This document shows, piece by piece, positions 30,301-61,678 of a stretch of DNA of 64,000 nt. A program made the translations under genes and the position numbers. The notes under the pieces were generated by a model. The model had not been told where the DNA came from and did no database searches. It saw only the letters and a program-made list of their open reading frames with translations. How positions within the stretch are numbered: the first letter of the stretch is position 1; each line of letters begins with the position of its first letter. Location: NCBI GenBank assembly GCA_010015585.1, contig ML975157.1; one strand, 5' to 3'. Source of the stretch: Eremomyces bilateralis CBS 781.70 (lineage: Eukaryota).

Positions 30301-30332
30301 TGATGAGAGGAAGTTATTGATCTTGCTGACAT
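27323..30332 (-). CDS. HMG-box transcription factor (MATA_HMG/Rox1-like), 3 exons
   Basis: KIPRPRN|AFILYRQHHQ...NPEISKIIGERWR..E....W..LAE|EEKVRHQQQYPTYRYQPRR, followed by RCNKCGG and a C-terminal region containing DHWQWMASLWRG. Confidence 0.88.
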
Positions 30333-42364: not shown

Positions 42365-43310
42365 TTAAGCCTTCAGTTGATTTGATAGAGCACCAACGTC
42401 TAGAGGGTGAGGAAGTGGATTGCCTGCCCACTCCGCAACCTCAGTACAGATTTTGGCCACCTCGGTCACAACACCCTCTCCGTTTCCCATTGCAAGGCTA
42501 GCTTTAAGATGGCTTCTTGCTTGTCTGGTGGAGCCACTCGCAGTAATAGCTGTTGCAATTAATAGCTGCGTTTGATGTTCGGCGAGCACACCCGATTTAT
42601 TTGCGCCTGCAACGCTGTAGCCCCATACCACTGTGTTTGTAGCCAGCCTCATCTCAGGAAACCCGATCGAAAGCAGTTCCCGCACTTCAGGATTGTTGAC
42701 CTTTTCGTATGTCCTAGCAATCATGGCTTTTCCTTCTTCTAGATGTACCCCCGCATCCAAGTCGCCCCTAATTGAATTAACACTTTTCCAGGGAATCGTT
42801 GAACGATAGTCCGGCTCCTAGCCTTTCGTTTCAACATACCGCACTTTCTGAGCCCCAATAAATTCAATATTTCTTCGCTGGAGGACATTTACAATGCCCA
42901 GGCCCGCAGGTACTGTCCATGGAATGCCAACGAATGGCCAGATAACCGTGATACATTCTCTTATTTTGTAGAATATCGCCTTGATTTCTTCAATATCTGT
43001 CGTACCTTCAATTGCTTCTTCAAAAAGCTTGGACGCACAGTCTCCTCTATGCGTGCCGACAAAGACCGCGGCCTATATCTCCTTGTCAGTGGGATGCATA
43101 TCACCGCAGGTTGTCTTGTCTTTGGTGAAAACGTACCAAGACAGCATAGCTGTAATACTTCCATTCGTCCTCTCCAAATGAGAGCAGACGCTTCCTTAGC
43201 GACGTCACCAATTCCGATGAAAAACCAGGTGCCCCGGGTCTGATATTCGCCGAAACATACCGCGCTTCAAATTCCGCTTGCTCATCGCCAGTTGGCTTTG
43301 ATTGTGCCAT
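42365..43310 (-). CDS. AhpD/carboxymuconolactone-decarboxylase-like helical protein (paralog A), 3 exons
   Basis: Spliced: MAQSKP...RPGAPGF...YAVL|AAVFVGTHRGD...IRECITVIWPFVGIPWTVPAGLG...KVR|GDLDAG...QLLIATAITASGSTRQARSHLKASLAMGN. The all-helical pattern resembles fungal AhpD-like proteins. Confidence 0.7.
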
Positions 43311-43543
43311 GTTGAAAAAGTAGCATACAATTTTATGCCTTGCTAATTGTTGCAGTGGTGGAGATGTGGCAGCTCGAGGAATTCGACTAAATGTACATGG
43401 GAAAGGCCAGAAAATATCCCGTAGTAGCTAGGCTAGTGGGATGATTTGGCGCATATTTGAGAGTGCACTCTTTCTCTTTGAGAGGCGGTCCCTTATTCTC
43501 GCGGAGTGGGACGTAGACCTAGTGAGTGAGTGAGTCTGGGCTA

Positions 43544-43589
43544 CGGAAGTGCGGGGAGCGGACCCGGTTTGTGCTACGGAAGAACGGGG
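43544..43589 (+). promoter_or_regulatory. Two CGG-N5-CGGGG sites in the AhpD-A/FMO1 divergent promoter
   Basis: CGGAAGTGCGGGG (43544-43556) and CGGAAGAACGGGG (43577-43589), each preceded by GCTA. Confidence 0.65.
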
Positions 43590-43801
43590 GTCTCATGCAT
43601 GGGCGATTCCATTGTTGGCTCACGGTGGAGCAGAGTAAAAAGCATGAGCAAATAAGCGGTCAGTTCGAGTTAAGTACTAGGTGTGGCACCGTGAGGCTGA
43701 AATACAGCAGGAGGTGCGTAGTACGATTCAGATCTCAGGCGAGGAAAATTAACCTTCAGAGCAGCTGTCATTTGCCGCTCATCACGACTGCTTCCATCCA
43801 A

Positions 43802-45490
43802 ATGGATCCTTATATTCCCTCTTTCGATGTCCTCGTTATAGGATGCGGTCCAGTTGGCCTTTTTGCAGCATATCTTCTGGGACAGCGCGGAGTTCAAACC
43901 TTGATTATCGACAAACACGTAACAAGAAGGGGTCAACCCAAAGCCCATGCTATAAATCCACGTTCGTTGGAGATTTTTCGTCAGACCGGCCTGGACGTTC
44001 CTTGTTTACGTCGTGCCGGACTTCATCCACAAGATGTCGACTTGGTCCGCTTTGTTTCTTCCTTTTACGGGTGGGAGTTCGGTAATCTTCCGTACGAGCG
44101 ACAGTTGGACGACGTCAAGGATGTTACCCCTGAGCCGCTGTTCAACATTGATCAGCCCAGTCTGGAAGAGTACCTGCTTTCGGAAGCTCTCGAGTCCCCG
44201 TATGTCATAATTCAAAAGCCAGTCGAGTGGAGGGCGGCTCGAAGCATCGCAAACGGCGATGTAATTTCAACCTTGTACGACCGACAAACGGACAAGTCTT
44301 TTGAAGTCCAATCACGCTACATTATTGCTTGCGATGGATCGCGCTCTACCGCACGAGAAGTTTTGAAGTTCAAGCTCAACCCTCTTCCCGATGTCGAGTG
44401 CAAAACAACGGACTATGTCACTACTCATTTCAAAGCCGACCTGTCGGGTGGGCGCTCCGGTATTCTCTTCTTTATAATGCAGCCCGATGGCTTGAGAACA
44501 TTTATCCGCTATGGTGCGGTTGACTGGGTGCTCGTCTACAGGTTCAATCCCGAAAAAGTTCAGCCTTCGACATTCACTGAAGAAGAGTGTTCCCGCCACA
44601 TTCAGGCAGCTCTAGGAAAAGACGTTGAGTTTGAGATCTTGAGCATCACTATCTGGTCCACCACGCCTCGCATCGTGGAGTCCTACCGCTCCTCCCTGGT
44701 CAAAAATGCGTTCCTTGCTGGCGACTCGGCGCACACATTCTCTCCAACCGGTGGACTGGGTCAAAACACAGGCTTCGGCGATGTCCATAACCTGGTATGG
44801 AAGCTTCTGATGGTCATGAACGGCCATGCTTTGGATATCCTGATGGACTCATATGACGAAGAGCGCATAACAGTAGCAGTTGCGAACGCACGTCAAAGCA
44901 CCGTCAATGAAGCCAAAATGGATGTTTTAGGACAGACTATCAATCCGGCGAGCGAACGCGGCCATGGTAGCCAAGAATGGGAGAATGAAGACTTTCAGTA
45001 CAAAGTTCGAGAAGCGATCCAGCACAATGCCGACCACTTTGACTCGCTTGATCTGCAACTTGGCATGATTTACAACAAGCTGCCGCGACCGACGGACCAG
45101 AATGTTTCCAAATTTGTTCAAAAAGCAGTTCCTGGAGCCCGATTGCCTCATGCTTGGGTCGAATTTGGTGGAAAGGTTGATGCTTCATCCCTGGACCTTG
45201 TGGGCTATTCGGACCTCACTCTACTATGCCCCGACCTCGTGCTTGCCCATGAGCTAGAGTCCCGACTTTCCGCAAATGTACGAGAATTGGTACAAATCAA
45301 GATTCTCGGTAGTCATTTTACCACCAACAATACCGACTGGCTCGATATGCTTTTTACCACGCAAAGGAATCGGGCAGTGCTCGTACGTCCAGATCAGCAT
45401 ATCGCCAGCCTTCTTGATTCTACATCATCTATGGTTCAAGCTTTCAGGTCTATCAACCTCGAAGTCCCCAATCCTCCTTCCTTCTCGTGA
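43802..45490 (+). CDS. FAD-dependent aromatic hydroxylase (FAD_binding_3, TfdB/PheA-type) FMO1, intronless
   Basis: VLVIGCGPVG, ACDGSRS, FLAGDSAHTFSPTGGLGQNTG, PGARLPHAW and LVRPDQHI. The likely start is MDPYIPS at 43802. Confidence 0.9.
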   Translation: MDPYIPSFDVLVIGCGPVGLFAAYLLGQRGVQTLIIDKHVTRRGQPKAHAINPRSLEIFRQTGLDVPCLRRAGLHPQDVDLVRFVSSFYGWEFGNLPYERQLDDVKDVTPEPLFNIDQPSLEEYLLSEALESPYVIIQKPVEWRAARSIANGDVISTLYDRQTDKSFEVQSRYIIACDGSRSTAREVLKFKLNPLPDVECKTTDYVTTHFKADLSGGRSGILFFIMQPDGLRTFIRYGAVDWVLVYRFNPEKVQPSTFTEEECSRHIQAALGKDVEFEILSITIWSTTPRIVESYRSSLVKNAFLAGDSAHTFSPTGGLGQNTGFGDVHNLVWKLLMVMNGHALDILMDSYDEERITVAVANARQSTVNEAKMDVLGQTINPASERGHGSQEWENEDFQYKVREAIQHNADHFDSLDLQLGMIYNKLPRPTDQNVSKFVQKAVPGARLPHAWVEFGGKVDASSLDLVGYSDLTLLCPDLVLAHELESRLSANVRELVQIKILGSHFTTNNTDWLDMLFTTQRNRAVLVRPDQHIASLLDSTSSMVQAFRSINLEVPNPPSFS

Positions 45491-45762
45491 CAGCTTCCTA
45501 GCTTATCAAAAGCTCTGGTAGTAGCTGAACCAGATACATAAACCAAGTTGGGCCCATGATAGAGAGAGAGTAGACAGATAAAATGATAACTGGCAATTCA
45601 TGAAATGACTCAATGAGTCGTCTTAAATAGTAAAGTCGAGTTGATGCCGTATTGAAGTGACATGTTTGGGACTCGGCAGGGTCCTATCGCACTTGTCACT
45701 GGTTCAAGCAACTTCGGGAAAGGATTTTCTCTTGCGGCAAGCAAATCTATTGATACAAATTT

Positions 45763-47493
45763 TTAGACGCAGAGACTCAAGCACTCTACAAGGTCCTCTT
45801 TCGATCCAATGAATCCCATGATGTGTTGATCTGGTCTCACTAAGAGCGCCGCCGATGGAGACAAATGTGCGGCCCTTATCCAAGCCGCAGGAATTCGCCG
45901 CTCCTTCACATCGACAACTACCACAAGATCCTTCAGATCTTCAATCCAAGAGGAGTGGAATTTAACTGCAAAAAGCGTCAGTTTCCTTTCGGATACTAAG
46001 TCAAGCGTTGACGCCTTCCTTCCAACGCCATCGATCTGAAGCAGCCACGCGTGGGGTAATCGTGCACCACACTCGAAACTCGGTTCGTATAGGGAGCAAT
46101 CTTTGCGAAGAAGCTCTTGCGGAGACTTCGAAGCCTCGACATCATTGTATACGTATCCCAATTGAAGACCAAGACTGTCAAAATGATCTCGATTCCGCTC
46201 AATCGCCGTGGTGATATCGTTCTTGACCTGAGATTGGAGCATAAGCTCGGGTAATGCCGCTGACATATTTGAGACCGTCTCCAGAACCACCGCATCCAGC
46301 TGCCGCATATGTTGTTCGTTTACGGCAGATTGAATAGAGTTGGCCACCGCGACGGGTCTCCGTTCGGTGGTGTAAGTTTTAAGAAGACGTTGAGGAGTAG
46401 CTGTCAAGCCATCCAAAACAAATCTCATCTTCCAGACGAGGTTATGTGCGTCGGCAATGCCGGTGTTGACTCCGAGCCCTCCCATCGGTGGAAATGTGTG
46501 CGCTGCGTCTCCCGCTAGGAAAATTCGTTGATGACTATCAGAGTAGGAGCTCGCCGTTCTCGGCCACGTTGACCAGATTTGCACAGAATGAATCTTGATA
46601 TCGCTCAGAACGCCCGGACCGATGGCAGTTTTAATCTCTTTTTTGCACCTCTCGACGGTAAAGTAGCCCAAAGGTTCCTGAGTTATATCAGGAACTGGCC
46701 GAGCATATACCCATTCCGGATTTTTGTATCCGATGAAACCGCCATGCCTCGTATCTGGCGAACAAAAGAAGTACAACTGAGCCACTCGTCCATTGGTATA
46801 TGAAGAGAGGTCCATCGTGCAATGTACGGAAACGTAGTTCATCAGACCTCTATCGTCGTCGATCGCCTCCAGCTGGACTCCAGGGATTCGTGACCTAACA
46901 GTGGAATTCGTGCCATCTGCTCCAACGACAAACTTCGACTCCACTTCCAACACCTCGTTATGCCCTCGTTGCTTGATTCTGGACCTCACAATCTGTCTTT
47001 CTGCGTCGTATTCATAGCTTTGCCAATCGTGAGATCGATGAATCGTAACGCGGCCAGTTCCAAGGACCTCTTCTTGCAGTGCTTGCTCCAGAATCGGCTG
47101 TGAAAGATTGAAAAGAGGTTCCGGAGTCAATTCCTCCACGGCTTTATCTTGCCTCTCATAGGGCAAACACCCTATTTCATCTCCCGTTAGGTGTGTTAAA
47201 AACCTGACACGATCGCCTTCCTCCACAGGAACGCCCTTCTGTCTCAATTCGTCCAGGTCAATGCCAGCCTGCCGTAATATCTCGAGTGATCGCGCGTTGA
47301 TAGCATGTGCCTTAGGCTGCCCAAGTCGAAGGGCATGCCGTTCAACAATGGTACTATTGATTCCTTGTCTCGCCAGCAGTAGTGCAGTGACCAATCCAAC
47401 AGGACCCAGTCCCACCACCAGCACAGGTGTAGACAGTGGCGATTTGCTGAAGAGCCTTTCATCCCGCGTGGGAAGTGGATCAAAGTAGGCCAT
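45763..47493 (-). CDS. FAD-dependent aromatic hydroxylase (TfdB/PheA-type) FMO2, intronless paralog of FMO1
   Basis: VLVVGLGPVG, GADGTNS, FLAGDAAHTFPPMGGLGVNTG, GARLPHAW and LVRPDQHI. ATG 47493 is preferred because a TATA-like element at about 47560 is too close to the alternative ATG at 47529. Confidence 0.9.
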   Translation of the reverse strand: MAYFDPLPTRDERLFSKSPLSTPVLVVGLGPVGLVTALLLARQGINSTIVERHALRLGQPKAHAINARSLEILRQAGIDLDELRQKGVPVEEGDRVRFLTHLTGDEIGCLPYERQDKAVEELTPEPLFNLSQPILEQALQEEVLGTGRVTIHRSHDWQSYEYDAERQIVRSRIKQRGHNEVLEVESKFVVGADGTNSTVRSRIPGVQLEAIDDDRGLMNYVSVHCTMDLSSYTNGRVAQLYFFCSPDTRHGGFIGYKNPEWVYARPVPDITQEPLGYFTVERCKKEIKTAIGPGVLSDIKIHSVQIWSTWPRTASSYSDSHQRIFLAGDAAHTFPPMGGLGVNTGIADAHNLVWKMRFVLDGLTATPQRLLKTYTTERRPVAVANSIQSAVNEQHMRQLDAVVLETVSNMSAALPELMLQSQVKNDITTAIERNRDHFDSLGLQLGYVYNDVEASKSPQELLRKDCSLYEPSFECGARLPHAWLLQIDGVGRKASTLDLVSERKLTLFAVKFHSSWIEDLKDLVVVVDVKERRIPAAWIRAAHLSPSAALLVRPDQHIMGFIGSKEDLVECLSLCV

Positions 47494-47640
47494 GATTTCT
47501 TGTTTGGAGGTATCGCAGGGCGGTAACATGCATTCGATGACAAGGGCGAGGAATTACTATATAAACCCCTGTTGGCTTGTGCACTCTCGCGGGCTACCTT
47601 TAGCCTTCCGCCTTCGCGGCACCAGCGACTGGGCTAGCTT

Positions 47641-47653
47641 CGGCAAAACGGGG
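47641..47653 (+). promoter_or_regulatory. CGG-N5-CGGGG site upstream of FMO2
   Basis: CGGCAAAACGGGG. Confidence 0.55.
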
Positions 47654-48130
47654 CAGAGAGCAAGAGCGGAGCTTCGAGGCAGCGCGGCGGGCCGCTTGGC
47701 TAGGGGTAAAAGCGCCCGGTAGGTGCGTGCCGGGAGAGCACCGTCGGTAGAGTGGCGTGGAAGGACGTCATTCGGCAAGGGCAAAGGCGGACCGAGAAAT
47801 GAACGCCCTATATGGTACGGAGTACGGAATATCACCACGCTATCTCAATCAGCTTTTCTACAATAGGTAGCGTTCCCTAACTTAGGTCATCGGAGACATA
47901 GATAGTGGACTATCCCCTTGAAATATCACCAGAAAATTTGAGCACGCAATCCCTATTGGCCATCATATGCTTATCAACCAGACAGTCTGAGCATTTGAAT
48001 TTGAACGCGATGATGCTTCTAAACAGTTCTATATCTCGAACATAAAATAACACACTTTCAATCTGGTTTCCGGGCCCCCTGATGTAAAATAGGGTTATAG
48101 AGCGTCACCTCTTTACTGCTCACCCAAAAA

Positions 48131-49445
48131 TTACGTCAGTCTAGCTTCGCGTGGTCGCAACGCGTTGCCGTAGTCGCCAGCATTGGGAGCTCTTTGGATG
48201 GAGTGAATGTGATACTTTTCCGGATTCTTGTTATTCAAGAAAACTCCAGAGTGGTGGTCAAACTCGACAACTACTACCGGACTCTGAATTCGGTAGTAAA
48301 AAGGATCCTCATCACCGTAGCCTCCGACCCAGCTAAACCATGTGTCCTGGAGATGTTTTTGTATCTGCTCTTTTCTCTTCTCCCAAACCGTATCGGGTAG
48401 GTAGATGAGCATTTCGCGCAAGATAGAGAACACGAGCGAGATCTGTGACTCAGACATCGCTGTTAGCCGGATACCCTCATATGGAACAATGCGGTTGTCC
48501 TGGAAGGCACCGCATAAGTGGCGCTGATCAGCTTCGTTCCAACGCCCTGGCTCACAACCTTCCATGCGTGGATCTTTGTACACTTGCGCTGTGCGCTTTA
48601 GGGAATCAGGAAGACTCTGCATCAGAGCAAGCCCAAGCTGCTCTTCTGGACGCATCATGGTAGTGCCCTCCCATATACCCTCATCAATCTCGTTGGGTTC
48701 CGCCCCTATGAAGACGGGTGCAGCCATCATCCAACGTCGGTCCAGATAAACACACATGCAAACATGGTGGCCCCAGAAGTTCCATCCCCAAGCTTTATCG
48801 GCGGATGGCTCTCCGAAAAGGATAAAGTTGTAAGATCGTTGATTAAGTACTTTTGGACCATGGGTCAGTTGTCCGAGGAAGTGGTTGGCTCGCATCGCGT
48901 TAACTAGCTTGGCATATCCCGCAGGTGACAAGGTAGCTTTGATAATTCCAAGGATTGCATCGCTAAGCTGCTCCGAAACTTCGTCCAAACGAAGCCCGTA
49001 CTTCGAGATATATATCTCTGGATTCGACCAGCTCCTCCACTGTCGAGCATTGACAGGATATGTCAATGCCTTTGACTCAGCGGGGGTGCACAACGTAAGA
49101 GCTTGCTCCGCAGCCGTGACAATGGTCTCCGATTGGACACCTTGATCTTCATATTCGTACAAGTTTGGGACGAGGTTTCCTTCAATAGGGTGTTAGCCGC
49201 TTTGCTTAGCGCGAACACATGGAACTCGGGTAACTTATACCGTCAGAAGTCAGGCCTTTGTAGGGTTCTTCCCATAATTTCAGCCACGTCTCAGTAAGCT
49301 TCTTCGCAAAGGGGTTCTTGTAGAACTCGTCTGCCCACGTATGAGCGTCATGATGCGGCAACGCTTCGAATTTTCCGCTCGTCAGGTCAGGTAAGTAAGC
49401 ACGGTATTTGCCCGTTGGGCGTGTATCAACACTTTCATCCTTCAT
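48131..49445 (-). CDS. DUF3500-family protein, 2 exons
   Basis: MKDESV...EPYKGLTSDG|NLVPNLYE..., with RQWRSWSNPE, WGWNFWGHHVC, PVFIGAEP, YYRIQSPVVVVEFDHH and HIHSIQRAPNAGDYG, all characteristic of DUF3500. Confidence 0.85.
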
Positions 49446-49767
49446 CTTTTGATAACAAGTAGCTGCGTGCACAGCGGACTTCGCGCGTGTACCAGATGCA
49501 GTGGTGTAGTAAACTATGCTCGCCTGGTTGCGTTGCTTCGCAACTGGTCCGCTTTGAGCCAGATTTGGGAAAATGAGAGTTGTGTACGGAACAGATTAGA
49601 GCAATTTTAGCAACGCTATTGGAACCACAAGACAGTCACAATCCGAAGGGCCTTGATGCCGGGAATCATAGCCGAATTATAGATGACAAGGGTAGGCCAG
49701 AGGATCCCTTTGAGAAACTGCCTCAGAAACAGGTATGAGGTGTCATGATTAGCATGTTGGCCATTTC

Positions 49768-49854
49768 CGGTTGTCTGGGGGAGGTCGGCCCCCGCTGCGC
49801 CGCAAGTCGTAGGTTGTACCGGCTTCAAGGTTTGATCAAACCCCCACAGAGCCG
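49768..49854. promoter_or_regulatory. Three CGG-N5-YGGGG sites in the DUF3500/AhpD-B divergent promoter
   Basis: + CGGTTGTCTGGGG 49768-49780; - CGGCGCAGCGGGG 49790-49802; - CGGCTCTGTGGGG 49842-49854. Confidence 0.65.
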
Positions 49855-50057
49855 ACAACGGCGAGCCATGTCGGCAATCAAGAACGAGAACGAGCGAAGC
49901 AGCTATCCGTTCATTTCCGATGGGATGCTAGCATTGACTCTACACAGGTATTTGTATGACTGGTAGACTGGTAGAGTACTGATACGTTGCTCTTCAGGCG
50001 ATTCGAAAATCGAAATAGCACTGAAAGCAGCTCCCACCTCCAAGTACATCCAGCACC

Positions 50058-50907
50058 ATGTCCGATTTCGACTCCAAGTACGTCACTACCAATAACCGGC
50101 CAGGTGCACCGCAGTATGATGATGCATTCGTCAATTCGTTGAAAGAAGATATGCTATCGGAGGCACCAGACCTAGCGCTAATAGCCGACGCGGTCCTGGT
50201 ATGTTCTTGACAAGCCACGAGACATCCATTGAAATTGTGCTGATTACATCCTGTATCAGTCATCTTGCGCTATTGGGGCGCATCGAGCGGATTTCGTGCC
50301 ACGATTGCTTGATGCCGCACTCCAGACCATTCACCAAGATATCGAGAAATCAAAGGTGTGCTTTGAGCAGTTCAGGGCCGTGGTCATGATATGCTGGCCA
50401 TTCATTGGCATTCCATGGTGTGTCCCGGCCTGTTTGGGCATGGTAAATGTCCTAGAAAAGTATAACCTGCTTTCAATTGCGTACGGTCGCGCCCAGCCTC
50501 CGTTGAGCGATGCACACATCGCCATGGGCCAGGAGCTTCAACAGCGCACCTACGCAAATGTGCAGAATTCCGAAGTGCAAGCCATGCTCCAGAACTGTTT
50601 TGCAGACTTTACATTAACGACTTGGGGGGTCGTGTTCGGCTATTCGCTTGCAGAGACGACGAATAGAGGCATTTTCGAAGCCCACCAGTCGCAGTTGATT
50701 CTTGCCGCGTCCATTGCCTCAAGCGGAGCGACAAGGCAAGCGAGGTCGCATATGACAGGTGCATTGGGCCTCGGGCTTTCAGTGGCTGCAGCCAAGGCTA
50801 TATTGAAGGCTGCGAAGAGACTAAATGAGTGGAACGGTGTCGAAATCAGCGACATTGATGCCGGAGAATTGAATCGACAAATGGAAGCAGCCCAAGCTGC
50901 AAAGTAA
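50058..50907 (+). CDS. AhpD/CMD-like protein (paralog B), 2 exons
   Basis: MSDFDSKYVTTNNRPGAP...ADAVL|SSCAIGAHRAD...ICWPFIGIPWCVPACLGMVNVL...QLILAASIASSGATRQARSHM. It is clearly homologous to 42365-43310 and shares the position of intron 1. Confidence 0.72.
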
Positions 50908-51087
50908 CGAGATAGATAAACAATCCTATAAGAACTTTGTTCTTGAACCTTAAAAATCTGTACTGGCAAAAACGGAATGCAATTTCTTGCGTACATTGAA
51001 TATGCCAATACCCTTTTGCTATCCAACTGCTGTAACTGCCCTATGCCTTTGAGCCTGGACCAAAATGCCACCTACTGCTTGACTTTA

Positions 51088-53032
51088 TCAGCCCTGAGGA
51101 ATGAATGGTACAAGTAAAAGGCTGTCATATTCGCCGCCAGCATGAATTAAGATTCTGCCGTTGTTCAGTGTTTTGGGAGCATCCACCCAGGGTAACAACT
51201 CAGGTCGCAGGTTGAAGCCAGCAACCGAGAGTTGCATTTTCTCGCCTCGCTCCCAGATCATTCCATGTGGCCACATTTCTATCTCCACTGGCACAATCTC
51301 ACCCTCGCTCTTTAAGGTTTGGATATTGCGATGAGTGTAGTGGGGCTGGTGCGGCGTTGATCGCTCGATGTCCAGTTCCCTATGGCTGACCCGGAGGCGA
51401 CCATGTGCACCTTCAGAGAAGAATACATTTACACGCGGATCTCCTGCTGCATGCATCTCTCGAAGTTTCTCCTTGGCAACCTCGGGATTATCTTGGAGAT
51501 ATCCAACATCAACACACTCAGTTTCAACAAGGCCGCCATTGGCGTCCAACTTCGAGAACTTCGTGAAAAGATCAATGTCGTCGTTTCCGATGGCCTGGAC
51601 CCAAAGCTTCAGTTTGAAATAACCTGTCAGCTCAGCCTTGCAGGGAAAGGTGTAAGTAAACTTGGCAATGTCCTTCCTGCTGTCTAGGTTAACTGTATCC
51701 GGGTTCGTTGGTTTATTCCCCCATTCCAGACAGGATGTCGATGCATTCAGGTAGAGAGGTATTGATTGTTGCCTCGTGAGAGGAAATTCAAGCTCCGGCC
51801 GATTGACAATGTCCTGATTCCCTGGGTTGAGGATGGACAAGCGGACCTTGGGTGTAAATTCCCAGCCGTTGGATTTGTCCTTCATGAAGTGGTCGTAGAA
51901 CTTTCGAAGATCTTCAACATTTTGAGGGTAGTACAGATCTAAGATCGTTAGCGTCAAGCTAAACTTGGTTAGAGCATGCGGATCTACCCGGCCATTCATG
52001 ACTATTGTGAACCCTCAACCACTTCTTCGGGCTACTCGATTCGGACCATCCGCGGAATGTACCCCGTGTGTGCAACATATTAGTCCAGCTTGCAACAACG
52101 TACAGTGGTATCTTAATGTTTTCCACCTTAGCTCGACGGTCTTCCCAATAATCGTTCCAAGTTGGGTACTTCGCAGTCATTGCGGACACGTCTTCCGTGC
52201 GACCTAACCCTACAAAGCAATTATCCAGAAGATTTTGTTGAAACTCCGCATCTGGAATGCCACCACGTTGGACGGTGTCATTGTACAAATCATTCCATCC
52301 TTCCCACGGAGCCAGACAGGTCAGATGAGGAGGCGATTCCGCACCGACCCACCACTGGGTTTGTGCGAGATATGAGTTGCCAGCCATAGTCACTCTGACA
52401 TGTCGTAAGTTCTTTGTTAAATATGATGGAATTGTCATTACTAACCGCTTATTGGACCACGGCTGCTCAGCAATCCATTCAACAATGTCGTATCCATCCT
52501 TGCCGTCTAATGTGGAATTGATGTATACATCACCTTCGGACATCCACGTACCCCGGGTATCTTTACTTGAGACTTAATACGAATCTGATCTGTTTGAGTA
52601 GGATAGCAACTTACCTGGGTGAACCAAAGCATAGCCATGCAAACACCAGTATGCCGGATCTAGGGCTTCGAACTTCTCCAATGAACTGACAGTCTTTTGA
52701 GGGATTCCATTGCGCCACGGAGCGCGGTCGGTCCCCATGCGGTTCAAGCCACCCTGCTTTCCAAAACCAGCACTCGATATGATCGCAGGAATTATTTTGC
52801 CGCCATTGGGTGGCCGAAAGACGTCTGTGTATATCGTGGTCCCGTCTCGAAGCCTCAACTCGACATCCTTTTCCCAGAGGATATCGCAAGGCAGCGCCAA
52901 TGCTCCATCTTTCAGAATAGAACCCTTTGTAAGGAGTTCAGTCTCTTGTTTGAACCCCAGATAGAGGGCATGGCCTTGAGTAGTTGAGGGGGACTCTTTC
53001 AGAATAATATCAATCTCACCGATCTTGTCCAT
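51088..53032 (-). CDS. CocE/NonD family (peptidase S15) serine hydrolase, 4 exons
   Basis: LRDGTTIYTDVFRP, FEALDPAYWC..GY, DGYDIVEWIAEQPWSN, nucleophile elbow GNSYLA, PPHLTCLAPWEG, and a C-terminal PepX_C-type domain containing GRLRVSHRELD. Confidence 0.9.
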
Positions 53033-53187
53033 TCTTGTGGATCTTGAATGAAAAATCAGTTATATTTAAGCCGAAGTAGAGGGAAATAATCAGACTGAGA
53101 AATGCTAGCTAAAACAAACCTTTTGAACTAGACCCTAATGGCTAGATACTAATGTAGGAATATGGTAAGCCATGAGCAAATCAGGAT

Positions 53188-53200
53188 CGGAAGCGTGGGG
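53188..53200 (+). promoter_or_regulatory. CGG-N5-TGGGG site in the CocE/FAH divergent promoter
   Basis: CGGAAGCGTGGGG. An N6 variant, CGGAAGTGGTGGGG, follows at about 53210. Confidence 0.6.
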
Positions 53201-53358
53201 CCGGCCTATCGGAAGTGGTGGGGTGGCACATTGTTTACTAACTGCTCTTCACTGCTCGGTGCTCCTTTCCAGCTTCGACCCATACTGGCAGTCATCAATC
53301 ACATTCTAGTTTCGGAAATCACTCTGAACAAAATCTTGCTCTTGTTCAAACCTACGCG

Positions 53359-54281
53359 ATGGCAAGTTGGTCAAAGCTAGTTCGTTTCACGGATTTAGCA
53401 GGCAATATCCATTTTGGAGAGCCGACAGATGACTTCAGTCACGCCAAAGTCTGGGAAGGAATTTCGCTCTTCAGCCTTGCAAGAACTGACCGGGTCGAAA
53501 GGATTGCAGCTGTAGGTTCCCAAAGCAATTACACAATGACCAGTTTTCTCACTGTACCAAGCTTTTGCCGCCTTATCAACCCGATTCGATCCTTTGCATA
53601 GGCCTCAACTACCTAGATCATGCAAAAGAATGCGTAAGGCTCTTGTTCCCAACACCCAACAACTGAATGTCTGGTAACCTCTGGCAATAGAACCGCCCTA
53701 TACCCAGCTATCCAGTCCTATTCTACAAGCCGAAACTCACCGTGAATGGACCTTTCTCTGATGTTGTGGTTCCACAACACTGTAAGAGCCTGGACTACGA
53801 AAATGAGCTTTGCGTTGTGATGGCACGAGATGCAAAAGATGTCGCTGAGAGTGACGCCATTGACTATATCTTGGGCTATACTGTTGGCAATGACGTGTCA
53901 TCCCGGGAATGGCAGCAACAGGAGCGTAGTGGTGGTCAGTTTTCGTTTGCGAAGTCGTGCGATGGTTTCCTGCCATTTGGTCCAGCAATCGTCTCGGCTC
54001 GTCTCGTCCCGGATCCTCAAAATCTGGCTCTCGTAACTAGGGTTAACGGAGAGGTTGTGCAAGATGGTTCTACATGTAATATGATTTTCAGCGTTGCGAA
54101 GATTATATCATTCTTATCTCAGGGAACCACAATTCCAGCAGGAGCCCTGATTATGACTGGTACTCCAGCAGGAGTTGCAGCCTTCAAAACATCACCCCCT
54201 GTTTGGCTAAGGAATGGCGACGTGGTCGAGTGTGCTATCTCGGGTATAGGTTTCATCAAGAACAAGATGGTCACCCAATAG
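53359..54281 (+). CDS. Fumarylacetoacetate hydrolase family protein (FAHD/acylpyruvase-like), 3 exons
   Basis: CIGLNYLDHAKE, PVLFYKP, LDYENEL, GYTVGNDVSSR, AKSCDGFLPFGP and IMTGTPAGV. Confidence 0.92.
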
Positions 54282-54779
54282 ACTAGTGTAGGATCGGAAG
54301 CACTACTTGAGCTAAAGGCTTGCTATTACAGATTCATCAAACTTCCATGATTCGATCCAAGAGTTGAACAGTTAGCTGCATAGACATCAATAGTCTCGCG
54401 ACCTTACCTCAGTTGCCAACATTGGCGACGGAAACCCATCGGATCGGAACGCTACGACCTACCTGCTCTCGTTAGGTGCCGCAATGGACGAATTTAGCTT
54501 TGTACCAGGTAGCGTGCTCAAGCTGTACGATTTCATAGTATATTACATATATGCAGATTATTTTGGATTGAGTGGAGAAGGTACAATGTTATTGAATTGG
54601 CTACTCAGTGAAGCACACAGCAGAGCGACCTACTGGGTACCTTATCGGATAATTCATGTAGAGCCGGGGATTACAGTTTGCTTGTGCGCGCATATTCATA
54701 CTATAACGTTAAGTTAACTAGTGGTTGTTGTTAACTAAGTTATAACTAACTATATTATGTGAGTGACTAACAGTCGTCC

Positions 54780-56299
54780 TCAGCGAAGCTCGGGTGCATC
54801 ATACTCCTTGGACCAGCCCACTGCTTTTGATATCGTGGTGAATGCACCTCCAACATTCAATGCCGCCGCCATAAAGTACAGAAATAGCTTCCCGCAGACT
54901 GAGTCTGTGTCTGGGAACTATATGAAGTCAGCAAATTCATCACAGATGAAGCTCTGCTACTTACACTTTGAGATGTCCCTCCGCTTTTTTTAACCCACTC
55001 GAAAGCACGGGGAACCATCTTATCCTCGTAATCTGTGACAGCCCTCTCATAGTCCTCATATTCTAGTGCTCTAGTCGATTTAAGTTCTGCCAATTGTAAA
55101 AGGGGCTCCAGAGCATCTGCGCAGTCATGTAAAGCCTGATTTGCACCCATGCCACGAGATGGTAGCATTGGATGGATTGCATCACCAAGCAGCCACACTT
55201 GAGGATGCCCGACCTCGAAATTTCCCGGTGAAGCAGCTTTAGCTTTCTTTCTCCACCCTAGAGAGATAGGAGTGGACACACGGGGTTTGACAATGTAGAT
55301 GTCGTCTTCGCTCACGACGTTAACGATATCGGTGAAACCTGGATGCCAATTTTTGACTTTTTCGAGCATCAGAGACTTTCTATCCACGACTGCCTCTAGG
55401 TTGGGGATGTCTGGTGTAGATGCCCAGTTGAACCCTACCATGATAGAGGCTTCTTCTTCATTGTAAATTGACTGCTTCTTCAAGGTGTCAGTGTCGTTCC
55501 CCCGGTCATCCATGTTCACTTGTTTGTCAGGCATATAGACTACGCAGTCAGTAAGACGCTGGCAACAGATTAAGGGGCTTGGGTAAGTGTGAGGTATATT
55601 CGTACCGGACATGAATGCCATAACGCCTTTGGAAGCGCATGCAATGCTCCCAGATTCGATCAATTGCTGGGGCAGGGTGCTCAACAACGACGGCGGCAGG
55701 GCTCCTTTCGATAGAAAGCCTTGTCTATCAGTCAACTCGACAAGATTTGACGCTCCGATCTGTGTATTGGAGCTGCTCCGGTTGCCATCAGCTGCAATGA
55801 GAATATCCGCATCATCCGTCGTTCCGTCCGCAAAGTGTGCCCTAACTCCCGATAGACCTTGCGTAACGCTATCGAGGGCCTCGTAGCGAACAAACTTTTT
55901 GCCGTACTGTAGGATGTTTCTTTCTCTCAACAGCTGTTGCAACAAGTCTCGGAGAAGTGCTCGATTGATAGGGGCTGACTTCGTGTACGCCGAATACTTG
56001 CGGAGGTCGAGAACGAGACTGAGCTGCGAGTCATAGAACACAGGTGCGGATGGCACGACACCTCCCGATCTTCCGAAACGCTGAAGCACAGAATTGTACT
56101 GCTCCTTAGTAAGGCATGCTCGAAAGCCAGTTAAAGCAGCAGCACCTAACCGGATTTGATATCCCCCTCGATTGGCGTCGTACTCGTCGCGTTCATAAAC
56201 CACGACATCTATCGGGGCTTTGCTGTGATTGATAAGGCCGTTCGCAATAAGAGATCCTGAAAGACCGCCACCAATGACTATTACCTTGAGAGGCGCCAT
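54780..56299 (-). CDS. FAD-dependent monooxygenase FMO3 (different subfamily from FMO1/2), 3 exons
   Basis: VIVIGGGLSG, GGYQIRLG, IAADGNRS and WLLGDAIHPMLPSRGMGANQA. The spliced last exon is FPDTDS...YDAPELR* with the stop at 54780-54782. Confidence 0.88.
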
Positions 56300-56412
56300 G
56301 GCTCAGAAAGATTGAACAAAGATATATTTTCACGCCTCTTTGTGAAGAAGAAACATACACATTTGTATCCGCTGCTGGAAACCAGCATGAAACATGCTCC
56401 AAAATAGTGCCT

Positions 56413-56425
56413 CGGTTGTGTGGGG
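56413..56425 (+). promoter_or_regulatory. CGG-N5-TGGGG site upstream of FMO3
   Basis: CGGTTGTGTGGGG, about 115 bp from the ATG. Confidence 0.55.
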
Positions 56426-56575
56426 TGGTGTGTAGGAAGCAACAAAGAGCTCGCCGCAGTGGAGTAAAACGGAAGGACACTCCCATCTTTAAAGAAGAGA
56501 CAAGAGAATAGAGTGTAGATGCAGATAACCCGGTATATATATTTAATTATAATATTCAGATAACTTAGTTAACTA

Positions 56576-56640
56576 TTGATTGATTGATTGATTCCTGCAC
56601 CCGTTCGGGCCAACATCGGCTAGCCCACTTGGGGAACTAA
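56576..56640 (-). mobile_element. Possible 3' tail remnant of a non-LTR retroelement
   Basis: On the minus strand a short GC-rich unit (CCCCAAGTGGGCTAGCCGATGTTGGCCCGAACGGGTGCAGG) ends in an (AATC)n tail inside (AGTT)-rich flanks. Confidence 0.3.
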
Positions 56641-57165
56641 CTAACTTATTATTCTTTCGTCTTCCTCTAGTTATTTTCTTTATCCCTTTTTTCCTTGTGC
56701 ATAAAGTCTTTAAGCCCACTGATCTGACTGAATTAGATGTCTAGTTTCCAATCTCAACAAGTATTAATATAGGAAGAATCGCGAAATATATGTACGTATA
56801 TAGACGGTAATACTGGACCGATATTCTGCTGCCTTGGTAGGCGGTCATTACGATAGCAGCATTTCGCTAACATTATATTGAAGTGGAAACCAAGTTGACT
56901 AATATCGTGTTATATGAAAATGAAACTCGATGGAACTCTCTAGAGAGTTCTTGAATGTTTGCGCAAGCTATTATTACAATTATCTCCGAGTGTTATGGTT
57001 CCAGGCCTGTGGCTTGTCTCCTGAATGGTAGTCACGTGACTAAGTCAACTGTCGAAGTCTTCGACATCGCGCACGCGTCGTAGATAGCTCTTCTTCTTTA
57101 GCTTTGCAGTAAATGAAAGTGGTTCTCGTAACTTCTGCGATCAAACCGTCTCACCGAGGACATAA

Positions 57166-59280
57166 CTAGCGCCTGGTTTGCCCATGACCTGATTCAAATC
57201 TCGCACCTCGCGAGCGCCGAAACCGCCAAGTGCTCATCGACTGGCGAAGAGCTTTGCCTTTGATATAGAATGGAATTCCAAGGAGGCCCAAAAGGCTCAT
57301 AATACCAGCATATGTACCAAAACATCCATCGAACCCAGCTCTGGTGACAAAGTCGACAACGCCATAACTGATACCAAACCCGACGATGTTACGGTAAGCA
57401 CCGACGGCAATAACTATTGGACCAGCCAAGTCTGGAAAGCACTCGATACCGTACGTGGTAGATATTACGTTAGCTGCTATGAATCCGAACTGCTGGACCC
57501 CTGTCATGACTAGCGGAACAGCCCAATGGAATCGATCAGCGTGACTGCATGATATTCCGAAGATGAGCGTGCCAACAGCGCCACAAATGACGGGGAGGAT
57601 CAAGTTTGGAAGTTGATGCTCGGGCTGTCGTTAAAAATGTCAGCATGGAGTATTTAGACCAACTGGCTAGGTTAAGTACTGACCTCGTGTACCCCGTTAT
57701 TCCTCTTGGCTAGGAATTGGATAACCCTATCCCCACCAAAACCTATAACAGGGATCGCGACCAAGCTAGAAACAGCAAGGGGGATAGTGGACAGCCCAAT
57801 TTTATCCGGACTCCAGCCATAGTTGATGACAAGAACATTGCCTAGGACAAGACCAGACGACAGAACCACGCCAATGAAGCATGCATTTAGGCATACAAGC
57901 TTACGATGTTGTTAGATAAGTACATGTACAAAGCCGAAAGGAGCGCCTACCCATATGATGTTCGGGAAGAGAGCACACCGGAGAAGGTCCGTGCAAGTCT
58001 CCCACATTTTCTGGGCGCCAGTTTCGCTCGAAGTAAGTCGAAGGCTGTAGAGGTAGGACCGATCCCGACCGCTCGGACGTACAGGCTCAACGAAGCCATC
58101 CGTTCCTTTAGGAGATAGGCCCGCTGGATATGTTAGCTCTTCGGAATATGCCGATAAATTGCAGTAACTCACCAAGGTCGGCTTCCGTTCGAGCCCAGCT
58201 AGTCTCGGGTATAACAAGGCCTATCAACACTAATGCAGTGGCTCCGATGAAAGCCAGAATCCAGTAATACCACCTCCAAGATAGAGCGGAAACGATATAC
58301 GTGGACGCAATACCAAGTCCTGTCCCAACAATCCCACCGGTGGACCATAGGACGGCGAGTTTAGAATTACGATTGTGAACGTAGTTGATGTCTTGAATAA
58401 TGAGCGGCGCCAGTGACTCGACTGCTCCCACACCGAGACCTAGTACACAACGTGCTCCAATATGAGAGTAGAGTCCGTGATCTTTGCCATTGGATGCTGC
58501 TGCCCAGCACAGGCATACGACTACGATAGCCGCATCGAGGACCATCATCAACCTTGTACCAGTTAATTGTGCCCCGAGGATCGACAATATTCCGCCCAGG
58601 CCAACAAATAGCGATGGAAGTGTCCCAAGCTGACTAATGGTCTGTTGACTCGGCTTTCCAGGCACAGATGGAAAGGATATGCCTTCGTAATGAGTCTCGC
58701 GGCGAATGAGTGCACCACTGGGCGGAATGCCACCAGGGGGTAGACCGCTCGGAGGAAGACCATCCGATGGCAGAACACCAGGAGGCAGACCACCAGGGGG
58801 CAGACCATTAGGAGGAAGACCACCTGGCGGCATGCCAGCGGAACCCATGGACATCATGTTCGGATCTAAGTCTTGATAATAGAGACTAACGGTTGGTAAG
58901 ATGGCTGCAATAGATTGCACAGCTGTCAATCCAGCAGCAGCAACTGAGACTATTAGAAAGGCGCCCCAAGAGATGATGATACTCTTACAAAGGCAAATCG
59001 TGAATAGAACCGCCCACTTGCGCCTCTCTGGGATTCTCAATGGATCTGAAGACTTTGTCAGCATGGTGGTCGCTGAAATTCTATCGTGGTATCTCCGCGC
59101 TGTAGTACCATTGGGATCCGATGATGGAACTGGAATCAACTGGATGGTTCCCGTGGAGTCATAGAGGTTGATAGTGCCATCAGCAACTTCCTCCCTATCG
59201 CCTCGCGTGGTCATATCTCTTCCTGCCGATGCAGTTCTTTCCTCTTGGTGGACCACACTGGGTTCTTTCTCGGGGTCCAT
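57166..59280 (-). CDS. MFS transporter with a Gly/Pro-repeat insertion in its first loop, multi-exon
   Basis: PVPSSDPN|DPLRIPERRKW, ARCVLGLGVG, IQDINYVHNRN, LSWRWYYW, IPETSW, PEHQL and YGIECFP, with about 12 hydrophobic segments across the exons. Confidence 0.85.
58714..58836 (-). repeat. 15-nt coding tandem repeat (G-[LMI]-P-P-x, about 8 copies)
   Basis: GMPPG GLPPN GLPPG GLPPG VLPSD GLPPS GLPPG GIPPS in ORF 58108-59280. Confidence 0.85.
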
Positions 59281-59725
59281 TGTAACGGCAAGTCAAAGTT
59301 GTCCACCACGGTAAAAGAGAATGAATGAGCCAAAATACCAACGAGAGTTATATGCGATGTTCTCTATGACCCAAGTCCGCAGCACTGAGCGATCGGCCTT
59401 TGCGGGGTACATATCATGTTTATGTACAAGGTGTTAATGACGTTCTTCTAACCTGACACAAGGTTCACCTCTGTATTCCTATGGGCCAAAGGATAGAAAA
59501 AGGGCAATATTTGTGGCGCTTCATATCATAGCGATCAGCTATCATCCGTACCTCACTTAACTTGGTGCCATACGGAGGCAATGAGCCGGTCGATTAAGCA
59601 CAAATTACTCTATCCAAGATCCACATTGTCTCAGGCAATAGGCCAGGGTTGATTTCCGAGAAGAGATGGCCTTGAATTGGGGCGAGGTCGGATATCGAAG
59701 TCGGCATTGTGGGCATACTCACTGT

Positions 59726-59738
59726 CCCCGCACAGCCG
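59726..59738 (-). promoter_or_regulatory. CGG-N5-CGGGG site in the MFS/MBL divergent promoter
   Basis: - CGGCTGTGCGGGG. Near matches are CGGCATTGTGGGC (59702) and an N6 variant at about 59394. Confidence 0.55.
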
Positions 59739-60010
59739 ATATCTGGCGGGGAGTATGATCTTTATTGCTCGCGTTCATACGCCACCAAAATCCGACGTGC
59801 TGGTGTTTACTGTGCACTCTGCATTAGCTGGGGTTAATTGTCACAAGCAAGAGTGGAGCACCCTACCGCTTCTACTAGTTATATGTCATGCGCTCGTGCG
59901 CTATCTTGAGCTCTTAACTCCTGGACGGTCGGCTTCACACGAACAAATTGTTGCATCCTGCTCACCATTCGAGAAGATAGACATCAGTCCGTCCCCCAGG
60001 TTCGGAAAAA

Positions 60011-61144
60011 ATGGTCGAAAAGCAAACAATCGAATGGTTTGGTATGGCTGATATGGGTTGATTATATCGCCGTCATTGCTGATGAAACCAAGGCGCCACC
60101 ACTTTTCGACTTAGAGCTAAAGGCTTGACAATCTTTCTTGACACGTGGTTGGAGAGGCCGTCAAACATACCAACATATGCCTCCATTGACGATATTGATG
60201 AATGCGATTACATCTTTATCAGCCATGCGCATTTCGATCAGTATGAATTATGAACTGACGCAAGACGCCCTGAACTGACTCTTTGCAGTCTCCCTGGCGC
60301 TGATCGCCTAGCGAAAAAGACCGGCGCAACTATAGTTGGAAACGGCGAGGCCGTGAGTGTCATGCGTGCGGCTGGCGTACCAGAAGAACAGCTTCTGCCC
60401 GTTGCCGGCGGAGAAAGGATACCTCTTTTCTCAAAGTCTATCAGGGACGAAGTGCGATCGCAGTTCAGGGAGTTTCCAAGAAGTCGCGGGCCCCCAGGTC
60501 CGCCTAGGCCAGATGTATCCAAAGCTTCACTGTCGGTGCATGTATACCCCAGTCTTCACTGCCTCATGCCTGGGCCGCCAGGTCAACATCTCGATTTCAT
60601 CGACACAGCAACTGAGTACATTGGCGGCTCTGATCCATATGCTGGCACAATCGACATTACTATGGGGATGCGATATGGCTTGCTGGCTGCTGCGAAAGCT
60701 CCTCTGAGCGCCCGTGCTCAAATGCCTCCAGATTTCAGGCCATTTGTCGAATACATAGCGGATGAGAGAAACAAGTTCTCTAACTTTGACGGAGGCCAAA
60801 TGATGTATAACTTTTTTCTCGGCGAAAAGACACTATTATATATGTCACATCTAGGCGGATATTCGGGTATCCTGAAAGAGCTCGAACCACAACCCGACAT
60901 TCTTGTTATGGGCATCGCTGGGCGCGGCAATATCAATGGCCGGCCTTTTGATGGCTCAGCTGCACAGTGTGCGACGAACATCATCAAGTGGCTGGGTGAG
61001 CCGGAAAAAATTATATGGTGTCTGCACGATAAGGCTCCAATCAAACCATTCCGCGTGGAAACCGAGGCAGCAGCGAAGATGGTAGAGGCCGAAACTCGTT
61101 CGCGAGTTTTGACTTTGGAACATGCAACTGTGTATGATCTATAG
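60011..61144 (+). CDS. Metallo-beta-lactamase-fold hydrolase (UlaG/Lactamase_B_3-like), 3 exons
   Basis: Spliced MVEKQTIEWF|GATTFRL...IFLDTWL...YIFISHAHFDH|LPGADRLA provides HxHxDH. Later motifs are PSLHC and WCLHD. Confidence 0.88.
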
Positions 61145-61678
61145 CTGTTTGTAGACGAGTTGGGAGAATCATTATGCAGCAGTGCCCGACCTTGGGACAT
61201 TCTCCGAGCACTTGCAATCCCTTTCCCGTGTTTGGGCGCACAGAATTTCGCGTTGATGACCCCGGATCTGGCAGCTGAATTGAGTTGCTGGCGAATTACG
61301 GCTTACGGCAAATAATAATAATAATTCAATTTAACGTGCTATCCGGTTCCCGTTATGGTCTATGAACACGGACATTTGACTATTTAGTATGTCGCGGGTA
61401 AAAGTTTCCCCATTGCCAGGGCTATGGGTACGTAAAACCCCACCTCCTCCTTTGTGGTAGTAATTGTCCTTTCGTTTTTGCCTTCGTGGCTCTCCTTCTT
61501 GGTCGGTGCTTCCGCGGCGTGGTGGAGCAATACAGCAATATTGCTCCCCGTCGCAAGTTATCTCTTGGTTGATTTTTGGGCTGGCTGAGCCCTTTTTGTC
61601 CGTTGGGGTTATTATCCCTCACTCCGCTTTGGTTTTTTCGTTTTTGGAAAATGTCTGTTGCCGAAAATGTCCGTTGTA

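Follow-up and report, generated by a model that had tools for sequence, protein, structure and literature searches.

The gene cluster and its gene models

The sequence considered here is a 64,000-nucleotide stretch of contig ML975157.1 from Eremomyces bilateralis CBS 781.70, referred to below as the window. It is of fungal type, with genes carrying short GT..AG introns, and it harbors a cluster of ten genes whose protein families suggest the catabolism of plant or microbial polyphenols. The core of this cluster, namely a DUF3500 protein, an FAH-like hydrolase, a class A flavin monooxygenase (FMO) and an MFS transporter, is the core of the published fungal cluster for gallate breakdown via 1,2,3,5-tetrahydroxybenzene (THB) (PMC10832562, cited throughout for its accessible part). 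What is new here is a DUF3500 paralogue, together with additional hydroxylases and hydrolases and a module formed by a metallo-beta-lactamase (MBL)-fold hydrolase and carboxymuconolactone decarboxylase (CMD)-like proteins.

The coding sequences extend over 18.8 kb, from the stop codon of a CMD-like gene at 42365 to that of the MBL-fold gene at 61144. An original prediction, made from the sequence alone, had placed ten genes at 42365..61144, mostly in divergent pairs. These coordinates are exact, all ten families hold up, and eight of the ten genes lie in four divergent pairs. Seven of the ten are marked in place by strong Pfam matches among the 41 stop-to-stop open reading frames (ORFs) scanned between 40.6 and 64 kb. 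The prediction had also reported neither a PKS, NRPS or terpene synthase nor a transcription factor. Pfam scans of 41+37+27 ORFs over the 64-kb window detected no PKS, NRPS or terpene synthase, and no backbone synthase of any kind, DMATS included, was found among the ORFs scanned. In NCBIfam, no cluster protein receives an equivalog-level name.

Splice joints were taken from contigs of a public run (X1) whose RNA nature is only guessed; the contigs served for splice joints and not for expression levels. They contain intron-less joined forms of seven genes with canonical GT..AG ends, giving 15 listed joints and four more besides. Models spliced from these joints match the annotated lengths of 262, 417 and 344 aa for one CMD-like protein (b), the DUF3500 protein and the MBL-fold protein, respectively.

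Flavin monooxygenases

Three flavin monooxygenases are encoded in the cluster. FMO1 (43595..45490, + strand) is a single-exon gene for a TfdB/PheA-type enzyme of up to 631 aa with a C-terminal Rng_hyd_C domain (ORF 43526-45487; FAD_binding_3, E 4.3e-63; Rng_hyd_C, 3.5e-5). Translation more likely begins at a later methionine near 43799, just ahead of the GxGxxG motif. FMO2 (45763..47529, - strand) is likewise a single exon; it encodes a TfdB/HbpA-type enzyme of 588 aa and lies in tandem with the DUF3500 gene (ORF 45766-47553; FAD_binding_3 and Rng_hyd_C, E 7.6e-68). One unspliced X1 contig covers both genes (43767-47538). The two proteins share 38% identity.

The original prediction of TfdB/PheA-type phenol hydroxylases is supported for FMO2, which matches the structure of TfdB (6u0p, E 1.8e-47) over residues 32-571 and that of HbpA as well. 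This full-length comparison with TfdB and HbpA covers FMO2, and FMO1 is assigned by its Pfam domains and its likeness to FMO2. Compared with the TfdB-type hydroxylases found beside bacterial DUF3500 genes, FMO2 shows 29-32% identity. Hydroxylases of the TfdB type do not split off a carboxyl group from the phenols they convert, and compounds of the phloroglucinol, pyrogallol or resorcinol type are therefore attractive candidate substrates.

FMO3 (54780..56299, - strand; 468 aa) has three exons, separated by introns at 54918-54964 and 55540-55605. It is a salicylate-hydroxylase-like class A enzyme (ORF 54860-56302; FAD_binding_3, E 5.9e-11). Its relatives of solved structure comprise 4hb9 (1.2e-19), salicylate hydroxylase 5evy (8.3e-12) and the dearomatising hydroxylases AfoD and SorC. 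All its NCBIfam matches fall under their cut-offs.

The DUF3500 protein

The putative ring-cleavage enzyme is encoded by two exons at 48131..49445 on the - strand (intron 49179-49239). The product of 417 aa belongs to DUF3500 (PF12006, E 2.2e-104 for ORF 48134-49192) and is 100% identical to the annotated E. bilateralis protein P152DRAFT_435813 (417 aa). All the residues that are invariant in 43 fungal and bacterial DUF3500 proteins are kept in the window protein. These are H206, H207, E229, D296, E303 and E374, and further D376, H377, H378, H392, H394 and D404, which makes six histidines in total. A relative of solved structure is available: PDB entry 9x86_A, named 'Amc20' (297 aa), is matched with an E value of 1.2e-19, and this structure could show the DUF3500 fold and metal site.

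A tree built from 40 fungal DUF3500 sequences places the window protein in an eight-row clade (SH-aLRT 99) apart from a clade of 32 rows. The former also contains three metagenome sequences, two Aspergillus pseudoustus copies and the proteins of Neopestalotiopsis and Leptodontidium; the latter contains A. terreus, A. fumigatus and most of the Dothideomycetes. When the tree is rooted with 19 bacterial DUF3500 proteins, the fungal sequences form one group (SH-aLRT 100) and the eight-row clade is recovered (98). Both trees are quick searches with SH-aLRT support only, on rows hand-picked from 120 listed matches. In both, A. terreus P0094 sits in the other clade with further Aspergillus sequences, so the window protein is not the orthologue of the studied enzyme (A. 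terreus ATEG_08221-22, A. nidulans AN10530). P0094 was equated with ATEG_08221-22 because a second copy is reported to be lacking in A. terreus (PMC10832562). Judged by these sequence comparisons, the window DUF3500 is an old fungal paralogue of the studied enzyme, belonging to a sporadically kept clade.

CocE/NonD hydrolase, FAH hydrolase and transporter

A serine hydrolase of the CocE/NonD (S15) type lies on the - strand at 51088..53032. These ends are approximate, and the gene has at least three exons. Peptidase_S15 (1e-24) and PepX_C (4.5e-19) are matched by ORF 51091-52573, and the middle exon reaches 96 bits against TIGR00976 (2.8e-27), above the cut-off of 66.3. A piece of the protein matches PDB 3ib3 (2.5e-34), and the nucleophile motif reads GNSYLA, of the GxSYxG type. 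The predicted CocE/NonD role in ester or amide cleavage fits this combination of S15 and PepX_C domains and the match to 3ib3.

The FAH-family gene (53359..54281, + strand) encodes 271 aa in three exons (introns 53512-53561 and 53634-53690). ORF 53691-54278 matches FAA_hydrolase with an E value of 1.2e-63. Among known structures, HpcE (1gtt, 1.2e-48) and FAHD1-type enzymes are the relatives, in agreement with the role originally proposed for this hydrolase. Its identity to FAH genes beside bacterial DUF3500 genes is about 40%.

The MFS transporter gene (57166..59280, - strand; 615 aa) comprises six exons, supported by five X1 joints (ORF 58111-59292; MFS_1, E 4.3e-13). Its product carries a proline/glycine-rich insert of about 50 residues (58.9-59.1 kb), made of (G)LPP(G/S)-like units and located ahead of the first clear transmembrane block.

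CMD/AhpD-like proteins and the MBL-fold hydrolase

Two genes encode CMD/AhpD-like proteins. The first, a, lies at 42365..43310 (- strand; 269 aa, three exons, introns 42767-42838 and 43072-43135) and the second, b, at 50058..50907 (+ strand; 262 aa, two exons, intron 50198-50258). Protein b is identical to the annotated E. bilateralis P152DRAFT_458395 (P0001; exon 98%). With 37% identity, a and b are true paralogues. The closest relative of a is an A. pseudoustus protein (P0255, 46% identity).

The relation of this family to CMD is distant. Pfam CMD (PF02627) scores 14.4 bits on protein a (E 0.037), below the gathering cut-off of 23 bits, and gives no match on b. It appears in 7 of 11 relatives (best E 4.4e-4) and in 11 of 27 at E<=0.1 (best 9.7e-6). 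The only match of the family profile among PDB structures is the gamma-CMD decarboxylase 2af7, with an E value of 0.017. For an ESM Atlas model of a CMD-like protein (pTM 0.90), the three nearest structural neighbours are all CMD clusters (TM 0.59-0.70 by query). This link, weak but repeated, suggests that the two proteins adopt the all-helical AhpD/CMD fold, with predicted models on both sides of the structural comparison. The assignment of two AhpD/CMD-like genes made from sequence alone is upheld to this extent.

The family is small: 106 representatives were found at E<=1e-3 among 1.84 billion proteins, 61 at 1e-10 and 16 at 1e-30, and a word-sharing search returned nine matches. Its named members are apparently all ascomycete, and the proteins are about twice as long as the classical CMD domain. 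Invariant positions are P99, G137, N150, G174, G203, R206, Q207 and H211, the last four within an SGATRQARSH motif, and the family signature can be written as an invariant G..RQ...H. The gallate-induced A. terreus locus ATEG_02274-75_new, which has no domains, was considered as a homologue and ruled out, being only 258 bp long.

The MBL-fold metallo-hydrolase gene (60011..61144, + strand; 344 aa) has three exons (introns 60041-60091 and 60241-60288). Its large exon alone gives no Pfam match, and the N-terminal exon matches Lactamase_B_3 with an E value of 0.0018. The assignment made originally is secured by the spliced product, which contains an HAHFDH motif and is 100% identical to an annotated E. 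bilateralis protein (P0130) bearing the precomputed domains PF12706, PF13483 and PF00753. H55, H57, D59 and H150 are invariant in 36 relatives. The family profile leads to UPF0173 metal-dependent hydrolases (7e3v, 1.2e-8), over the N-terminal part only.

Genes of these two families are neighbors elsewhere. A metagenome scan yielded a single contig of 5.5 kb (L001) on which a homologue of CMD-like b (64%) and a homologue of the MBL-fold protein (74-78%) are divergent neighbors. The latter is cut by the contig end, and a Zn2Cys6 factor, with no homologue in the window, lies beside the pair. The two genes also bear consecutive locus tags in two species of Sporothrix, S. stenoceras (002396/002397) and S. 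bragantina (002668/002667), and non-consecutive ones in Cudoniella acicularis. For Talaromyces proteolyticus, they lie on contigs of equal size, which says nothing about their distance.

Comparison with the tetrahydroxybenzene pathway

Martins et al. (2023, Microb Biotechnol; PMC10832562) described the breakdown of gallate and 2,4,6-trihydroxybenzoate via THB. The genes involved encode a decarboxylating flavin monooxygenase, a DUF3500 protein which likely cleaves the ring, a short protein without domains which converts 5-hydroxydienelactone, and an FAH-like enzyme. Gallate induces these four genes with log2FC values of 7.5-10.7, and their deletion stops growth on gallate, 2,4,6-trihydroxybenzoate and tannic acid (PMC10832562). 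THB builds up in the DUF3500 mutant, 5-hydroxydienelactone in the mutant of the short protein and acetopyruvate-related products in the FAH mutant (PMC10832562). Ring cleavage by DUF3500 is accordingly based on the phenotypes of A. nidulans mutants and not on an enzyme assay (PMC10832562). The genes reported are ATEG_04855-58, ATEG_05726b and ATEG_08219-22 in A. terreus, and AN4576, AN10530, AN0331 and AN12484 in A. nidulans (PMC10832562).

Many Ascomycota possess clusters of FMO, FAH-like, DUF3500, short protein, MFS and transcription factor genes, and three types of cluster are set by the monooxygenase (PMC10832562). A. nidulans uses phloroglucinol and resorcinol without need for the canonical THB genes, and a bacterial phloroglucinol route runs via THB and acetopyruvate (PMC10832562). 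The accessible part of the FAMeDB paper (2026, PMC13094099) presents THB as the newest of eight fungal central aromatic pathways, with the remark that it 'currently seems restricted to fungi'. A 2025 review, in its accessible part, likewise counts it among eight such pathways.

Both the published cluster and that of the window contain a class A FMO of about 440-470 aa, a DUF3500, an FAH-like enzyme and an MFS transporter, a match at the level of families. FMO3, with 468 aa, is salicylate-hydroxylase-like, and the three published core FMO types measure about 435-450 aa (PMC10832562). No classical intradiol or extradiol dioxygenase is present in either cluster. The logic is probably shared: hydroxylation, ring opening by DUF3500, a lactone, then hydrolysis by FAH. 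The original prediction had not recognised the combination as a described cluster; this statement cannot be maintained for the core, which is that of the THB/gallate cluster (PMC10832562). It had also called for a ring fission step and left it without an enzyme; according to the same work, DUF3500 is the likely catalyst.

The two clusters also differ. The window DUF3500 is placed outside the A. terreus-type clade, among paralogues, and the short protein and transcription factor of the published cluster were not found in the window. Conversely, the window adds two TfdB/HbpA-type hydroxylases (about 590 aa), the CocE/NonD hydrolase, the MBL-fold protein and the two CMD-like proteins. These six added genes are unnamed in the accessible main text of the THB paper, where 'carboxymuconolactone', 'CocE' and 'lactamase' have 0 occurrences (PMC10832562). 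Table S6 of that paper lists one E. bilateralis THB cluster at NW_022985088.1:150774-157422 (6,648 bp, score 4.17). Nowhere in the window are two natural gene bounds 6,648 bp apart, the nearest low-to-low distances being 6,649 and 6,652 bp, and the listed cluster may be this locus or another one.

Bacterial DUF3500 loci

A scan of bacterial genome contigs yielded 216 DUF3500 relatives, of which 80 loci were kept (37-48% identity over near full length). When the sequence within about 8 kb of each gene was searched by tblastn with the window proteins, relatives of the FAH enzyme were found in 27 of the 80 loci, of the TfdB-type FMO in 20 and of the CocE/NonD hydrolase in three. As a rough control, five of these genomes (4.8-9.8 Mb) contain 9-28 FAA_hydrolase matches, so that chance alone would give about 0.03 per 17-kb locus, or about 3 in 80.

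Independently of the window proteins, 1,139 neighboring ORFs were clustered and 30 representatives were examined with Pfam. SDR proteins occur in at least 30 loci, FAH in 17, DUF4440/SnoaL in 16, TctC in 16, the TfdB-type FMO in 14, dienelactone hydrolase (DLH) in 13 and a small class A FMO in 12. All these counts are lower bounds per DUF3500 locus, since even the ORF of DUF3500 was dropped by the filter at 16 of the 80 loci. The frequent DLH fits the dienelactone intermediate of Martins et al. (PMC10832562).

In a Pseudomonas locus (L055), the order is MFS, DLH, DUF3500, DUF4440, FAH and, further on, FMO. An apparent operon of Myxococcales (L021) combines CocE/NonD, DUF3500, FAH and DUF4440. 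Other apparent operons are found in Streptomyces (L050), in L047, L064 and others, Leifsonia included; their partners also comprise Amidohydro_2, MFS or TctC transporters and IclR/TetR regulators. The bacterial loci thus resemble the window by linked FAH, TfdB-type and small class A FMOs, MFS and occasionally CocE/NonD. They differ from it by DLH and DUF4440/SnoaL, with MBL-fold and CMD-like relatives in 0 of 80. Overall, these operons appear to encode the bacterial equivalent of a THB pathway.

A putative polyphenol pathway

We propose, with a probability of roughly 0.6, that the cluster serves the catabolism of plant or microbial polyphenols through a THB-like central pathway built on the paralogous DUF3500. 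We infer the substrate, the order of the steps and each enzyme activity in the cluster. The original view of a catabolic cluster lacking a backbone gene is in line with the family assignments and with the lack of a synthase in the window. The polyhydroxybenzene substrate then suggested, of the resorcinol or phloroglucinol type and possibly released from an ester, is compatible with all the findings.

In such a pathway, the MFS transporter would import the substrate, and the CocE/NonD hydrolase could optionally cleave an ester or amide to release a phenol or phenolic acid. Hydroxylation would follow, carried out by the two TfdB/HbpA-type hydroxylases and by FMO3, the latter possibly with decarboxylation. 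Starting for example from phloroglucinol-, pyrogallol- or resorcinol-type compounds, they would generate a tri- or tetra-hydroxybenzene, either THB or a substituted analogue. The DUF3500 paralogue would open the ring of this product, and cyclisation would give an intermediate of the hydroxy-dienelactone type. The MBL-fold and the two CMD/AhpD-like proteins may process this lactone by hydrolysis, isomerisation or decarboxylation, standing in for the bacterial DLH and for the canonical short protein of fungi. Lastly, the FAH-family enzyme would split the resulting diketo acid, of the acylpyruvate type, into central metabolites.

The lactone role proposed for the MBL-fold and CMD-like proteins is suggested by their conserved pairing, by the lack of DLH and short protein, and by an analogy with the bacterial protocatechuate branch. 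In that branch, PcaC (gamma-carboxymuconolactone decarboxylase) and PcaD (enol-lactone hydrolase) are paired and also fused. In both systems a CMD-fold protein would accompany a lactone-opening hydrolase after ring fission. However, the CMD relation in the window is weak and under the Pfam cut-off, its proteins have 262 aa as compared with 125 aa for 2af7, and the partner has an MBL fold rather than an alpha/beta hydrolase fold.

Several observations weigh against a single THB-like pathway in the window. We know of no demonstrated enzyme activity for any DUF3500 protein. No Zn2Cys6, C2H2 or Fungal_trans domain was detected in the ORFs of the cluster or of the rest of the window, and a simple word search in six promoter regions produced no shared word above shuffled controls. 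The short protein (118 aa in A. terreus) has no credible small gene in the window, no reference sequence having been compared; the only candidate, ORF 54484-54717 on the + strand, lacks a Pfam match and lies in stop-rich and AT-rich sequence. Neither DLH nor DUF4440 proteins of bacteria have a homologue in the window (best E 0.22). Around the 80 bacterial DUF3500 genes, tblastn relatives of the CMD-like, MBL-fold, FMO3 and MFS proteins number 0. In A. pseudoustus, the DUF3500 paralogues (contigs of 51,114 and 162,626 bp), CMD-like a (18,788 bp) and the MBL-fold gene (36,272 bp) are on different contigs, and among the matches listed the species with the DUF3500 paralogue and those with CMD-like proteins overlap in A. 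pseudoustus only.

Alternative explanations

Part of these observations would be explained by a mosaic: a region of subtelomere-like or accessory character where two or three small, independent modules for catabolism or detoxification adjoin each other without forming one pathway. The modules could be FMO2-DUF3500-(FAH/FMO3/MFS), MBL-fold with CMD-like, and CocE/NonD with a hydroxylase. The MBL-fold and CMD-like genes stand alone with their own Zn2Cys6 factor on the metagenome contig and are paired in two Sporothrix species, none of their relatives is near any of the 80 bacterial DUF3500 genes, and the dispersal of the homologues over A. pseudoustus contigs and the lack of a shared promoter motif point the same way. 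On the other hand, ten genes of catabolic type occupy 18.8 kb with no housekeeping gene among them, and the MBL-fold gene and the two CMD-like genes are scattered through the cluster instead of forming one block. Bacterial operons moreover combine hydroxylase, DUF3500, lactone hydrolase, FAH and sometimes CocE/NonD, which argues that such a mix is what one pathway needs. We regard the mosaic as a serious rival that is nonetheless rather unlikely.

The MBL-fold hydrolase also brings to mind the detoxification of a lactam or lactone, either a xenobiotic or a phytoanticipin, in which this enzyme would open the heterocycle, leaving the product to be degraded by the hydroxylases and hydrolases. The BOA-induced FDB1 cluster of Fusarium verticillioides is the model here: it is a fungal cluster without a backbone gene and contains an MBL-fold hydrolase, amidases, a dienelactone hydrolase, an FAD-binding monooxygenase and a transporter, and another BOA-induced cluster contains an FAH gene (PMC10512309, accessible part). 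The window offers an MBL-fold protein, a CocE/NonD enzyme for esters or amides, FMOs and FAH. Yet FDB1 has amidases, NmrA and a transcription factor and is without DUF3500, FAH and CMD-like genes (PMC10512309), whereas no amidase, NAT or NmrA gene was seen in the Pfam scans of the cluster ORFs, and the profile of the window MBL is nearest to UPF0173-type hydrolases over its N-terminal part. DUF3500, CMD and CocE have 0 occurrences each in the accessible part of PMC10512309, and the combination of DUF3500 and FAH indicates aromatic ring fission (PMC10832562). Detoxification of this kind thus appears improbable. Even less can be said for the reading that these genes tailor a secondary metabolite and that the corresponding backbone synthase is located outside the window. 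The sequence beyond 64 kb, starting 2.9 kb past the MBL-fold gene, is unseen, and FMO3 counts AfoD and SorC among its structural relatives; but the 64 kb scanned contain no PKS, NRPS or terpene synthase domain, the left flank is of housekeeping type, FAH and DUF3500 belong to a ring-fission pathway in the single case studied (PMC10832562), and their bacterial counterparts are found in operons of catabolic appearance, together with transporters and IclR/TetR regulators. A tailoring function is therefore very improbable.

Surroundings of the cluster

To the left of the cluster (<42 kb), the window contains genes for NIP7, NOC3, a VLRF1-type protein and SCA7, an HMG-box gene, transporters and an arginase-family gene, all housekeeping or unrelated. 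A single DNA-binding domain was detected in the window, namely the HMG-box (29518-29805, E 4.3e-12), at a distance of 13 kb from the cluster. The HMG-box gene is large (27326-31181, - strand) and also holds a 704-aa ORF without Pfam domains. To the right, the stretch 61200-64000 (2.8 kb past the MBL-fold gene) contains minus-strand ORFs of up to 217 aa without a Pfam match and shows a raised GC skew; it may be non-coding or represent a gene or a relic. Neither the Rfam nor the tRNA scan gave a match in the window.

At 57028-57109 and 61372-61442, X1 contigs are very deep (1182 and 1864) and differ from the window at several bases. A repeat at 61310-61335 lies close to the second of these stretches. 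Both deep stretches may derive from a dispersed repeat or from a highly expressed relative elsewhere in the genome.

Implications for fungal and bacterial aromatic catabolism

A more specific version of the polyphenol pathway can be put forward tentatively, and we hold it for possible and no more than that: the cluster could be a second fungal DUF3500-dependent ring-fission pathway. In this version, the TfdB-type hydroxylases would make a tetrahydroxybenzene from non-carboxylated or acylated polyphenols, and the MBL-fold lactonase with its AhpD-like partners would replace the step performed by DLH or the short protein. The same tentative proposal takes the substrates to be of the phloroglucinol, pyrogallol or resorcinol type, acylphloroglucinols or depsides, for which fungal genes are not known. 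If true, it would provide first functions for two protein families. The cluster could also point to the phloroglucinol and resorcinol route, which skips the canonical genes in A. nidulans (PMC10832562).

Two of the four enzymes of the THB pathway are without known chemistry, and a paralogous cluster with other partners is a natural comparison for DUF3500 function and lactone processing. Beyond fungi, the bacterial loci that unite DLH, DUF3500, DUF4440, FAH and FMO genes suggest that a THB-type pathway is not confined to this kingdom, as compared with the view in the accessible part of PMC13094099.

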